IMG/VR virus record: IMGVR_UViG_2731957818_000004
Direction: 5' to 3' (one strand)
From: a virus
Lineage: Duplodnaviria; Heunggongvirae; Uroviricota; Caudoviricetes
Length of the DNA: 41,546 nt
Shown: piece by piece, positions 6,937 to 40,117 of the stretch
Position numbering within the stretch: the first letter of the stretch is position 1
How the letters are laid out: each line of letters opens with the position of its first letter
The notes under the pieces: model-generated
Told to the model about the DNA's origin: nothing
The model's database searches: none
What the model saw: only the letters and a program-made list of their open reading frames with translations
Translations under genes and position numbers: made by a program

Positions 6937-7003
6937 AAAAGACCTGCTTCCGTATATTTTAAATAAGTACTTTATTATTTATATATACAGAAACAGGTCT
7001 TTT
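6937..7003. repeat. Long inverted repeat, copy 1 of the twin palindromic cassette (motif A-like core at 6963-6982)
   Basis: Arms 6937-6957 and 6983-7003 are complementary at 19/21 positions around a 25-nt AT-rich spacer. Confidence 0.85.
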
Positions 7004-7080
7004 GTAATGAGTTGCTGCCAGCCCGCCCAGACCTTACCATATCTTCATGATCAGCTTTCATCATCGTAGGTAATGTCGTT

Positions 7081-8136
7081 ATGCGCTTAAGTCGCCTTCC
7101 TGGCTATGGTCTTCCTGAACTGGCTTTCTGGCCTCAGCCCCACTATGACAACAACAAATGGTGGATGCACTGCCTCAAGCTCCGCGAAGATGGGTCTTTG
7201 CATTGGCATCGAAGATATGTTGAGCGAGACAAGTCCAACGTGATATATGCCGATGATTATGTCGATTACCCGACAGCCAAAGCGGCGGCGATAGAGCTGA
7301 ACCAAAGCGTAACCTTCGATGTTGATTCTCTCGATATCCCCGATTCCCACAAAGAGTCATTACGCTTAAAGATTGAGAAAGCGCTGACCGCAAAATCCCG
7401 GCTAATGGATGAAGAGTATCTGATGTATCAGGTTGCGATTCAGAAACACGCCAACTCACCGCGCCTGACTTTAGAAGAGCTGGTGCTCGATGAACACTTC
7501 GATTCCGTGGCCCAGGAGTTGCTTGAAGTGTTGAACGAAATGCCGTACCTGCAATGCGTGAACATTCCAACTTACGGCATGATCTTGCTGCGCGACAGCA
7601 ACAACGTCTGGAAAAGAACCCACCGAACCTCAAAGGGTGCAAAAATCTGTTACCAGGAACGCATTGCTCGCGCATTTGGGTTGTCTGGCGCAGATCATTG
7701 GGGCAAAACCAAGTCTGCCATTCGCTCAATGCTTCTCCCGCGTGCAAACGAGTTGTTGCAACTGGCCAGCGTCAAACGGATGCTCGATGACGCCAGAGGC
7801 AAAGGCCAGAAGGTGCTGATCGTCGGGAGCTACGTGTTCTGGTATGAAGAGAAAAACCAAGTGGGATGGTGCGTAAAAGAAGCTAACGACAGTGAAATCA
7901 CGTCGCGAGGCAATGCACTCTGGAAAGAAGGTACGATCATCTCCAAAAACCACGGGCGGATTGTGGTGCTGCCTTACATCAAGGAAAACGGCGAAAAGGT
8001 AAAGGGCTATACCAAGAATGCGCCGAATGATGGAAAAGCCCTTCCCAGACACAAGGATGAGTATGTCGAACTCCCCTTCGAGGTTCTGGATGGTGATTTG
8101 ATGGTAGGGTTATTTGGCGAGCTTCACTACGAGTAA
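7081..8136 (+). CDS. Orphan 351-aa protein, divergently oriented
   Basis: Long plus-strand ORF in a minus-strand region, followed by a 13-bp hairpin; no family recognised. Confidence 0.85.
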
Positions 8137-8152
8137 CACCGTATCTCTAAAA

Positions 8153-8182
8153 ACTTCTAAGGTGGATGGCCACCTTAGAAGT
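8153..8182. terminator. Hairpin between convergent genes
   Basis: ACTTCTAAGGTGG-ATGG-CCACCTTAGAAGT, perfect 13-bp stem. Confidence 0.6.
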
Positions 8183-8192
8183 GAAGTAACCA

Positions 8193-8552
8193 TCAGCCTT
8201 TCTTCATCAGCTCGCGCTTGATTTCATCGGTGCGCATCGTTACATCGGCGGCGGTGATCGCCTCGTTCAGCTTCACGATTTCTTCGATTTCCTGCGGCGA
8301 CTTTTCTGCCAGATGGAAAATGGCTGCACGAATCACGTCAGAACGGGTGAACTTCTCGAAACGAGGGATGAACTTCATCATCTCCAGCAGATCGAAGTAC
8401 TCGTCTTCCAGCGACATTGTGCGGCTCTTAATCTTCTCTTTCCCACGAGTCGGACGCCCCTGCGGTCTGACTGGCTGGCGCATTGGGGTGCTGCTTTTTA
8501 CCGGTTCTTCCGGATCTTTGCGCTTTGCAAGGTCTCCCATTCTCATGGACAT
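8193..8552 (-). CDS. Putative partition partner (ParG/CopG-like ribbon-helix-helix), 119 aa
   Basis: Coupled to the parA stop (TAATG). Flexible basic N-terminus, then SRTMSL...TRSDVIRAAI strand-helix-helix pattern. Confidence 0.65.
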   Translation of the reverse strand: MSMRMGDLAKRKDPEEPVKSSTPMRQPVRPQGRPTRGKEKIKSRTMSLEDEYFDLLEMMKFIPRFEKFTRSDVIRAAIFHLAEKSPQEIEEIVKLNEAITAADVTMRTDEIKRELMKKG

Positions 8553-38050: not shown

Positions 38051-39303
38051 CTAGATCCACCAAGAATAACACGATTTTTCACCGGATACCTACGATGAAC
38101 CGGATAACCCAACGCATCCGCACTGTGTTCGATGCCGCCAGTCTTATCCATATCGCGTGAGCCTGGCTTGTAGATCACCTTCTCCAGCGAGTCGATGAGG
38201 TGTTTGCACTTCGGATCGATGTACAACCGGGTTTCGCCCGAGGCACTCATCAACATGCGGTTCACTGCGTTAACACGGTCTGCGATCGGCGGGTGCTTCT
38301 TCGGATAATCGACTCGAAGGAAACCTTTTTCCTTGAAGATATCGACGTCCGATTCGCCGCGTGCGTGCTGGCGATACGCACCAGCCGGGTCAGGGAAGAT
38401 AGTGACCTGAGACTTCCAGCGCCAGAAACGGCGCTCCAGCTCATCACACACTTCAGCCGTGTTGGAAGAGAACAGCACAACCTCGTCCACGGCCCACAAC
38501 TCGCCATTTGGCTGCGGCTGCAGGATGACCGATGACATAGGGTCGATGTTGAAGTCCTGACCAACCCAGATCGGCAGTTTCGGATTGAACTGGAGTGGCT
38601 TCACATGCACATTGCGGTCGAACGGGTAGTAAACGCGTCCGGACATGTTTTCGAAGCTGGCCAGGTATTCCTGTGCGAACGATTTAGGGTCCATATCGTT
38701 CTTCGCTGCTTCGATTTCCGCGCTCGGTACGAACGGAGAATCAGCCGTAACAAACTGCCAGCTCTTCCACTGCCCCTTGCGTTGCAAATCTTTGTTCTGA
38801 CCGATAGTCCACAGCTTGTGGAACTCGGAGAAGCCTTTTGGCGTACCGATGATCAGCGCACCGCCACGGGTAGAGGACAGTGTCGGACGCAGTACCTTGT
38901 ACCAGGTGTCCGGCTTCATATCCTGAAATTCATCGAGCACCACAAAGTGCAGTGCCACACCACGAAGCGTATCGGGCTTATCCGCACCTTTCAGCGCGAT
39001 TTCAGAGCCGTTCTTCAGCACGATGGTCATCGTGGTGTCGTTTTTCTTACGAACCCATTTACGCGGCAGAACTTCCTGCAGGTCATCCCACAAGATCTGG
39101 CGAGCCATCTGGTACGTCGGTGCGACGTACCAGACACGTTGCTTCTTCTCTTTGGCTGCCGCGCGGATGATGGTGGAGATCGACAACCGGGATTTACCCC
39201 AGCGTCGACCCGCACACACCACTTTGAAACGATGTGGCGACTGAAAGACTTGCATCTGCCCAGAATGCAGCTGTACGAGACTCAGAGACGACGGGATGGC
39301 CAT
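38047..39303 (-). CDS. terL: Terminase large subunit, 418 aa
   Basis: Walker A AGRRWGKS, VAPTY, LRG...VVLDE, GTPKG, GQDFN nuclease motif, EHSADA. Confidence 0.95.
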   Translation of the reverse strand: MAIPSSLSLVQLHSGQMQVFQSPHRFKVVCAGRRWGKSRLSISTIIRAAAKEKKQRVWYVAPTYQMARQILWDDLQEVLPRKWVRKKNDTTMTIVLKNGSEIALKGADKPDTLRGVALHFVVLDEFQDMKPDTWYKVLRPTLSSTRGGALIIGTPKGFSEFHKLWTIGQNKDLQRKGQWKSWQFVTADSPFVPSAEIEAAKNDMDPKSFAQEYLASFENMSGRVYYPFDRNVHVKPLQFNPKLPIWVGQDFNIDPMSSVILQPQPNGELWAVDEVVLFSSNTAEVCDELERRFWRWKSQVTIFPDPAGAYRQHARGESDVDIFKEKGFLRVDYPKKHPPIADRVNAVNRMLMSASGETRLYIDPKCKHLIDSLEKVIYKPGSRDMDKTGGIEHSADALGYPVHRRYPVKNRVILGGSR

Positions 39304-39305
39304 AG

Positions 39306-39947
39306 TTAGACGCTCCCATCACTTTCATCACCAGACGCGTCAGAATCGCCCTCTGCTTCGCTCAGTGCTTCCTCTTCGAGTGACTCAAGCAGATCGTCAT
39401 CAATCAGATCCGGCTCATCATCTTCCTTACGCAGCTGCGCCACCTGGGAAGGCGTAAGTTCGCCAAATACCAGGTTCGGGATTTCGTCTTCTTCGTTCTC
39501 AGCGCGATCCATACCGAGCGCTTTCGAGGATATTTCGAAGCACTTAGCGAGTGTGCCGCTGGCACGCTGGAGACTCTTCAGGTCATCTTCGATGGTTGCG
39601 AGTGGCTTGCCGTCCTTCTTGGCTGTGGCCACCTCATGCATCACCATCCGACCGAGTGCGAATGCCCAATCGTCGTAACGAGTCCGGCGCTCTTCGATTT
39701 TCTCTGCACGCGCCTTCGCACGCAGCTCTGCGTCGGATTTGAGCGACTCGCGCACCATCTTCCCAACGGAGTCCGCGCCTTTCTCTAATCCACGCTTTTT
39801 GAAATGTCTGGAGAGCGTTTCACGACGAATGCCGTACTCTTCCTCCAGCTTGGAGAGTGTGTATTCGCCGGAAGTCCACTTTGCTTCGGCTTCTGCCCAC
39901 TCAGCTGGTGTCAGGCGAGTTTTGCTCTCGTCTTTTTCTACAGTCAT
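39306..39947 (-). CDS. terS: Terminase small subunit, 213 aa
   Basis: N-terminal HTH (W...EYTLSKLEEEYGIRRETL), helical core, acidic tail; abuts terL. Confidence 0.75.
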   Translation of the reverse strand: MTVEKDESKTRLTPAEWAEAEAKWTSGEYTLSKLEEEYGIRRETLSRHFKKRGLEKGADSVGKMVRESLKSDAELRAKARAEKIEERRTRYDDWAFALGRMVMHEVATAKKDGKPLATIEDDLKSLQRASGTLAKCFEISSKALGMDRAENEEDEIPNLVFGELTPSQVAQLRKEDDEPDLIDDDLLESLEEEALSEAEGDSDASGDESDGSV

Positions 39948-39987
39948 AGATCCCTCTAAAACACTCAGAGCGCATCCTTGCGCTCCT

Positions 39988-40025
39988 AAACAACTTGTTT
40001 AATTCAGTGCCTAACCAATTTGTTT
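39988..40025. promoter_or_regulatory. Two motif B sites upstream of terS
   Basis: AAACAA-C-TTGTTT (39988-40000) and AACCAA-T-TTGTTT (40013-40025). Confidence 0.55.
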
Positions 40026-40062
40026 TCTGGGTGTTTAAAACCGGGCTGGGGAGTATTCAGAA

Positions 40063-40117
40063 CCTGCTTCCGTATATATTTAATAAGTCACTTAGTATTT
40101 ATATATACGGAAGCAGG
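40063..40117. repeat. Long inverted repeat, copy 2 of the twin palindromic cassette (motif A-like core at 40083-40102)
   Basis: CCTGCTTCCGTATATAT / ATATATACGGAAGCAGG, perfect 17-bp arms. Confidence 0.85.

Follow-up and report, generated by a model that had tools for sequence, protein, structure and literature searches.

The 41,546-nucleotide (nt) stretch of tailed-virus DNA analyzed here (the window; Caudoviricetes, IMG/VR record IMGVR_UViG_2731957818_000004) carries two closely related palindromes, one before the terminase gene terS and the other before a helicase/primase gene block. We favor, with moderate confidence, the interpretation that these palindromes are RNA punctuation hairpins, acting as terminators or as RNase III sites. 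The long nested hairpin, found at three fixed positions in complete relatives, would punctuate operons on the sense transcripts, which in the window are those of the minus strand.

The window belongs to a 56.8-kb viral fragment, estimated to be 52% complete, and is part of an SSU5-like phage-plasmid. pHCM2 and pMT1 are related to phage-plasmids of this type. Matches to the terS region are present in 768 plasmid records from clinical Enterobacterales (Klebsiella, Escherichia, Enterobacter, Yersinia, Salmonella, Citrobacter and Cronobacter), and the gene regulation of these elements is essentially unstudied. The kind of device, a terminator or RNase III hairpin, is familiar but has not yet been described for the SSU5-type plasmid family. 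Three hairpins at module borders, one of them apparently cut in an RNase III-like manner, provide a handle on how lytic operons are separated and processed; the gain is one of annotation and mechanism for this family and involves no new principle.

The two palindromes are as follows (fold energies are minimum free energies, with z-scores against shuffled sequences).

6943-6997, minus strand: copy 1 (class R, the replication copy), core hairpin in which arms of 15 nt flank an AT-rich loop of 25 nt
40063-40117, minus strand: copy 2 (class T, the terS copy), core hairpin in which perfect arms of 15 nt flank an AT-rich loop of 25 nt
6912-7038, minus strand: nested palindrome at copy 1, -51.7 kcal/mol, z -6.9
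40038-40144, minus strand: nested palindrome at copy 2, -57.5 kcal/mol, z -8.2

A preliminary description of the window had reported common arms around 25-nt spacers at these two places, two arm mismatches in copy 1 that are G-T compatible on the minus strand, the position of one copy before the helicase/primase block and of the other before terS, and the lack of a U tract in copy 2; each of these observations is borne out by the sequence. The arms of copy 2 are CCTGCTTCCGTATAT and its complement. In copy 1 the left arm is perfect, and the right arm deviates at arm positions 5 and 9. Both positions are U-G wobbles in RNA of the minus strand; on the plus strand they are C-A mismatches. The 56-nt units of the two copies share 86% identity (repeat family D10). 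The arm occurs four times in the window at up to 3 mismatches, against 0.68 occurrences expected, and there are four hairpins with 14-nt arms, against 0.1 expected from simulated sequence. These four are copies 1 and 2, one hairpin inside a gene, and a stem at 8152-8183. The last is a near-perfect 14-bp stem (13/14 pairs) with a 4-nt loop, located between the converging genes at 7081-8136 (plus strand) and 8193-8552 (minus strand), and looks like an ordinary bidirectional terminator.

When folded with 40 nt on either side, both cores are found at the centers of nested palindromes of about 110-125 nt. The outer helix of copy 1 is formed by GGTAAGGTCTGGG paired with CCCAGACTTACC and encloses the core hairpin. 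Copy 2 combines a contiguous 21-bp helix with an outer helix of GGTCTGGGAG and CTCCCCAG, and its nested palindrome extends into the stop codon of an upstream open reading frame (ORF) of 88 amino acids (aa). The outer helices of both copies are built on GGTCTGGG and CCCAGACC; as a dispersed site, the outer motif CTCCCAGAC shows no clear enrichment in the window (15 matches vs 8.2 expected). The loop of copy 2 carries a TAAGT-C-ACTTA dyad that lengthens the helix. The preliminary description had called this dyad similar to motif A, a dyad family found before many minus-strand genes of the window. The half-sites of the loop dyad (TAAGT-N-ACTTA) are indeed common to both, but their spacing differs, and we thus do not read it as a motif A operator. 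By lengthening the helix above the cut described below, the dyad may instead form part of an RNase substrate.

Neither copy was reported by a consensus scan for terminators and promoters, because their loops are longer than 8 nt. A search of the hairpins against Rfam returned no family at gathering score, and a permissive search gave sub-threshold matches to microRNA-precursor models only, which we take to signify merely a long hairpin. The element had been put forward as undescribed, and our literature searches likewise found no published description of this hairpin in SSU5-type elements; PMC9600943 contains no terminus data.

RNA ends within the terS copy

Six RNA runs contain near-identical sequence, and the contigs of four of them, from four studies, were placed on positions 37500-41546. 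In two of the four studies (runs X15 and X20), the contigs break at copy 2. The two ends in run X15 are located in the hairpin itself.

40070, minus strand: RNA 5' end inside the 3' arm of copy 2, reading 5'-GAAGCAGG..., adapter-joined
40108, minus strand: end of the upstream RNA contig, reading ...CCUGCUUCCG-3'

Run X15 is a noncoding RNA sequencing (ncRNA-seq) library. One of its contigs covers 37919-40070 and then continues into GATCGTCGGACTGTAGAACTCTGAA, which is identical to the reverse complement of the Illumina/New England Biolabs small-RNA 5' adapter. The adapter fusion at 40070 thus marks the 5' end of a minus-strand RNA. The upstream contig reaches from beyond 41546 down to 40108, leaving the 37 nt between the two ends, which form the top of the hairpin, uncovered. 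In the folded stem, position 40070 pairs with 40110. The upstream end is located 2 nt past this partner, which generates a 2-nt 3' overhang, and the pairs between the two cuts are C40109-G40071 and G40108-C40072. In vivo double cleavage by Escherichia coli RNase III is likewise reported to leave a 2-nt 3' overhang, with G-C pairs between the cuts (PMC6212723). The same staggered arrangement is found in copy 2, at the level of contigs and in one run. The stem also provides the roughly two turns of double-stranded RNA characteristic of RNase III sites, with a 21-bp helix, about 14 bp below the cut and about 13 bp above it, the latter with small interruptions. In run X20, which comes from a separate study, the contigs extend to 40057 and 40120, about equally short of the two X15 ends.

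We propose that RNA polymerase would pass through copy 2, which is devoid of a U tract, and that an RNase specific for double strands, most likely RNase III of the host, may then cut the transcript inside the 21-bp stem. This cut would separate the upstream mRNA of the DNA-modification module from the packaging/structural mRNA. Among the readings offered by the preliminary description, that of processing sites fits an RNA 5' end in the copy 2 stem and a geometry resembling that of RNase III sites; for a hairpin promoter, a master switch, an origin, a pac/cos element or paired recombination sites we found no positive support.

A second adapter-joined 5' end is present in run X15 at 37948 on the minus strand, 65 nt inside the portal gene, where the sequence is rich in A. 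This end probably marks a further processing site, and suggests that the X15 library captures processed ends.

Hairpins between the genes of polycistronic phage transcripts are found at the T7 RNase III processing sites (R0.3 to R18.5) and at lambda sib/tI. The hairpins described here resemble these sites in that they are long, intergenic and present in several related copies per genome, with a cut inside the helix that leaves a 2-nt 3' overhang with G-C pairs between the cuts. As a further likeness, lambda sib/tI nests a terminator and an RNase III site in one structure. In contrast, the T7 sites have an internal loop and usually receive one cut, whereas copy 2 has a perfect 21-bp helix and an apparent double cut. 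The present hairpins further differ from both systems in that three copies, near-identical across genera, are placed at plasmid-prophage module junctions; the dependence on RNase III is one that we infer.

Three fixed copies in related elements

Seven complete phages (SSU5, Cyrano, PhiR41_1, CMS-2020a and three Klebsiella phages) contain three copies each. The notion of twin cassettes in the preliminary description is thus an artefact of the fragmentary record, and the third copy sits in the missing half of that record. We surveyed 92 loci from viral contigs and phage records, which reduce to 49 distinct versions. All instances fall into three intergenic positions, and in each the hairpin has the same orientation as the gene that follows it.

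Class T: 88-aa ORF, hairpin, terS
Class R: variable gene, hairpin, SSU5_038
Class M: N6-adenine methyltransferase gene, hairpin, SSU5_089

The hairpins of classes T and M are flanked by conserved genes on either side. Class R copies are abutted by at least six unrelated upstream contexts, and their downstream side is constant. In a BLAST search with window positions 6700-7300 the Escherichia/Salmonella homology stops at query positions 298-302, the end of copy 1, and the class R copy thus also marks the border of the plastic cargo region.

Such a border could be taken to indicate that the palindromes act as hot-spots of recombination, or as mobile regulatory cassettes, and thereby shuffle modules, as in T4-type phages. 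The end of homology at the edge of copy 1 and the unrelated contexts next to an unchanging downstream side would both be explained in this way. A variable region adjoins the class R copy only, however; there are three fixed copies only, with no extra ones flanking cargo genes, and loops that differ within one genome speak against a site-specific crossover in the spacer. In T4-type phages, promoter-stem-loop cassettes are similar in that a repeated unit of stem-loop and promoter is located at gene-block borders, and the class R copy borders cargo. They differ from the three fixed copies described here, two of which lie between conserved genes and for which we found no sign of mobility. We consider a recombination function hardly probable.

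A packaging role was considered for copy 2, as it is found 115 nt upstream of terS. It could be a pac/cos packaging start, or part of one, that is recognized by the small terminase, with the other copies being relics or secondary sites. In support of such a site, the linear records of SSU5 (JQ965645.1) and Cyrano (OV696614.1) open within the terS-copy loop, with the 3' arm following after 3 nt in SSU5 and after 2 nt in Cyrano, and class T alone is without a terminator tail. The opening of these records may reflect a genuine end or a break in assembly at the hairpin, or it may be a convention, in Cyrano copied from SSU5. A pac site is normally unique per genome, but the same arms occur at two further places in SSU5, 33 kb and about 25 kb away from terS, and the RNA ends described above provide an explanation of copy 2 on the level of RNA. 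It is thus very improbable that copy 2 serves as the packaging start.

The element extends to Yersinia pestis, in which pMT1 of strain 91001 (NC_005815.1, 28296-28350) contains the terS copy only, the arms being perfect; at up to 3 mismatches, neither the replication copy nor the methyltransferase copy was found in this plasmid. An arm-like match at position 69543 of pMT1 is located inside a coding region and was discarded as a chance match. We also rejected the Y. pestis small RNAs sR082 and sR083 on pMT1 (PMC3770706) as candidates for this element; they are located elsewhere, beside phospholipase D and DUF4145 genes.

More distantly, Pseudomonas phage nickie has the same gene order, with an imperfect palindrome before terS and a palindrome of 22-nt arms before its SSU5_038 homologue (7195-7265 and 41058-41134). 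Their arms are unlike those of SSU5. The two nickie copies share the inner motif TTTCCCT...TAACTAC, and their loops hold a ACAAGTTGT-like box. A third copy was not found in nickie, and in Rhizobium phage RHEph10 and Xanthomonas phage JGB6 there is no intergenic room for a hairpin at the replication position. These comparisons support the presence of position-conserved hairpins outside the enterobacterial group only weakly.

Arm conservation, strand asymmetry and terminator features

The arm is nearly invariant in the three paralogous copies across Salmonella, Escherichia, Klebsiella, Cronobacter and Yersinia elements, with a diversity of 0.045-0.08 as compared with 0.43-0.65 in the adjoining 20 nt. 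Where it does vary, the changes are mostly of the kind tolerated by RNA pairing. At the non-Watson-Crick arm positions of class R, the sense RNA has 28 G-U pairs and 13 mismatches vs 1 G-U pair and 40 mismatches in the antisense RNA, counts that are phylogenetically non-independent. The sense hairpin is more stable than the antisense hairpin in 18 of 19 class R versions and in 10 of 15 class T versions, with mean fold energies of the sense RNA of -24.5 and -29.6 kcal/mol, respectively. In Klebsiella class R copies, up to 5/15 positions have drifted in one arm; pairing is kept by means of up to four wobbles, and the U tract is kept as well. Compensated pairs are found at arm position 9 (U-A in Cyrano class R and PhiR41_1 class T), position 8 (U-A in Klebsiella class M) and position 5 (U-A in pJN2-26 class R), and three further compensated pairs are located in the outer helix of one class T lineage. 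The preliminary description had suggested searching relatives for the arm and for compensatory changes; the arm is indeed conserved and compensated pairs do exist, but class M partly departs from the sense-RNA pattern.

We found no concerted evolution of the arm, as no genome-specific arm variant is common to all three copies. Lineage-specific letters are common only to the loops of classes T and R, and loops differ between the copies of one genome. Purifying selection on a long stem in which only wobble-type changes are tolerated would explain much of the arm identity, if not obviously all of it.

A stable stem-loop on the transcribed strand, as found in intrinsic terminators, is present in both copies of the window. 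Around copy 1, the following features are located.

6937-6942, minus strand: U tract (UCUUUU on the minus-strand RNA), directly past the copy 1 stem
6870-6898, minus strand: promoter-like site downstream of copy 1, with TTCCAA at 6898-6893, a 17-nt spacer and TATGAT at 6875-6870
6838-6853, unstranded: motif A dyad box GTAGGTATATACTTAC, past the promoter-like site and ahead of the SSU5_038 homologue, whose ATG is at 6826-6824

A mirror A/T tract at 6998-7003 yields the same U tract on the plus strand, giving copy 1 the layout AAAAGA, stem, TCTTTT. From this arrangement, copy 1 looks like a bidirectional terminator. Past the stem, copy 1 reads UCUUUUAC, with a U tract present, and copy 2 reads UUCUGAAU, with the tract absent; in copy 2 it is found on neither strand. 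Among relatives, at least 5 T within 8 nt past the stem are present in 20/22 versions of class R, 7/14 of class M and 0/13 of class T. In classes R and M, the long stem followed by a U tract would bring about transcription termination. The preliminary description had judged the palindromes too long and too conserved to be ordinary terminators. For copy 1 this argument does not hold, given a stem that tolerates wobbles and the U tract in 20 of the 22 class R versions.

The promoter-like site is kept in class R relatives as TATGAT or TATCAT and is a putative promoter; the consensus scan omitted it, its -35 element matching at 3/6 positions. This site, motif A and the start codon are all located downstream of copy 1, and the hairpin would thus end the upstream unit rather than start the replication operon, contrary to its earlier placement at the head of that operon. 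Copy 1 may act as an intrinsic terminator that closes upstream transcription and shields a regulated promoter of the SSU5_038-helicase-primase block. As in intrinsic terminators, among them the bidirectional ones that end phage operons, a class R stem is followed by a U tract and preceded by a mirror A tract, and it is located after a last gene and before the next promoter. Unlike in usual terminators, the stem comprises 15-21 bp and the loop 25 partly paired nt, making the structure much larger, the same sequence is reused at three sites, and the terS copy is without a U tract.

Termination might in principle be the only function, with all three copies being merely terminators or insulators, copy 2 a leaky one, and the RNA ends at copy 2 products of decay or of library preparation. 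The U tracts of classes R and M and the location of each hairpin after the last gene of a block would be accounted for, contig ends are weak as evidence, and two runs read through the hairpin. However, class T has no U tract in any of its 13 versions, although it is the best-conserved class. An adapter-joined 5' end in a perfect stem would be unexpected for chemical fragmentation or single-strand RNases, and this end and the neighboring contig end are offset by exactly 2 nt. Moreover, depth on the terS side is equal or higher than upstream: in X15 it is similar on both sides (68 upstream vs 75), and in X20 it rises from 43 upstream to 150 on the terS side. We regard an exclusive terminator function as rather unlikely.

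Conservation of the arm could also be that of a DNA-level site for a protein encoded by the element. Such a site could be a dyad operator or activator site, a lytic origin or an unwinding element heading three modules, with the RNA hairpin as a by-product. It would fit an arm that is near-invariant in three paralogues across five genera with flanks about tenfold more variable, a loop of >85% A+T between GC-richer arms, a copy 1 adjoining helicase and primase genes, an 88-aa ORF adjoining copy 2, and a class M devoid of sense-strand wobble bias; the lineage-specific letters common to T and R loops are expected of co-evolution with a reader or of gene conversion. A dyad operator should be conserved independently of pairing and without strand bias. 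We find the arms strongly conserved, but class R is sense-biased, an asymmetry of G-U pairs that is meaningless for duplex DNA, and in Klebsiella class R copies both RNA pairing and the U tract persist in spite of drifted arms. Compensated pairs exist, an RNA 5' end is located inside the copy 2 stem, and the arms are 40 bp apart from center to center, unusual for a simple operator. Taken together, a site that acts on DNA instead of RNA is unlikely.

Palindromic origins and telomere-resolution sites such as herpes simplex virus oriS and N15 telRL are comparable to the present element, a palindrome of about 55 bp with an AT-rich center that is carried by a phage-plasmid and has one copy beside replication genes. 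In contrast to these systems, SSU5-type records are circular or permuted, and the wobble asymmetry and the RNA end point to RNA; a link to an initiator or protelomerase was not found, although no test aimed at one was made. It is improbable, if conceivable, that the hairpins have a dual purpose, in which the invariant arms would also be read on DNA by one element-encoded protein that links three lytic programs, namely replication, the nucleotide/DNA-metabolism block and packaging. The hairpins could then serve, for instance, as loading sites or extruding origins, and the terS copy could at the same time be the packaging start.

Several observations weigh against the interpretation as RNA punctuation hairpins. 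The RNA evidence consists of assembled contigs rather than reads and concerns the terS copy only, the upstream contig end at 40108 is without an adapter mark, and runs X17 and X18 have contigs of 34 kb and 70 kb through the hairpin, which may represent DNA carry-over or uncut precursor RNA and, as they span the entire stretch, are uninformative as to ends. A transcription start at 40070 is conceivable if the X15 library keeps triphosphate ends; by eye, we saw no good sigma-70 promoter for such a start in the sequence of the copy 2 loop. When reduced to events, the wobble pattern is estimated to comprise about 6 sense-compatible vs 2-3 incompatible changes. In class M of the SSU5 and Klebsiella lineages, C-A mismatches are present in the sense RNA, and 7/13 class M versions fold more stably as antisense than as sense RNA. 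In the window, copy 1 is located between divergent genes, with no obvious sense-strand transcription into it. Lastly, a near-identical arm in three paralogues and across genera is not fully explained by structure, because RNase III does not require a specific 15-nt sequence.

Gene context and further features of the window

The genes of the window are nearly all on the minus strand. In minus-strand order, the terS copy is preceded by the 88-aa ORF and followed by terS, terL and the portal gene, and copy 1 is found 83 nt upstream of the SSU5_038 homologue.

39306-39947, minus strand: terS (PHROG 867, DNA-binding domain), the first gene past copy 2
38047-39303, minus strand: terL, directly after terS
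6099-6826, minus strand: SSU5_038 homologue (PHROG 2500, function unknown), the first gene past copy 1
4698-6038, minus strand: DnaB-like helicase gene, after the SSU5_038 homologue
3424-4635, minus strand: primase gene, after the helicase gene
39988-40026, unstranded: two AAACAAnTTGKTT palindromic boxes (family D11), between copy 2 and terS
39967-39986, minus strand: small hairpin of the terS leader, GC-rich and with a U-rich tail, directly before the ribosome-binding site

The gene upstream of copy 1 diverges from it in the window (7081-8136) and is co-directional in SSU5. The AAACAAnTTGKTT boxes are invariant in all aligned class T relatives, and another such box is found near 6050 (6043-6073). 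The small hairpin at 39967-39986 may be a leader attenuator or a translational element.

Motif A comprises the dyad GTAAGTATATACTTAC and its variants and is located 10-100 nt upstream of minus-strand start codons, at 2477-2512, 3384-3411, 6837-6857, 11898-11933, 24802-24836, 31254-31289, 34589-34624, 36517-36551 and 38030-38050. It is probably the operator or leader element of one regulator.

Upstream of a ParA-type gene (8552-9217, minus strand), tandem heptamer repeats at 9434-9509 (AAAACTG, about 10 copies) are a candidate for a partition or iteron site. In-frame tandem repeats are present in two very long minus-strand ORFs, with 99-nt units (4 copies, 18867-19262) in the ORF at 18358-22644 and 120-nt units (3 copies, 14596-14955) in the ORF at 12751-16857.

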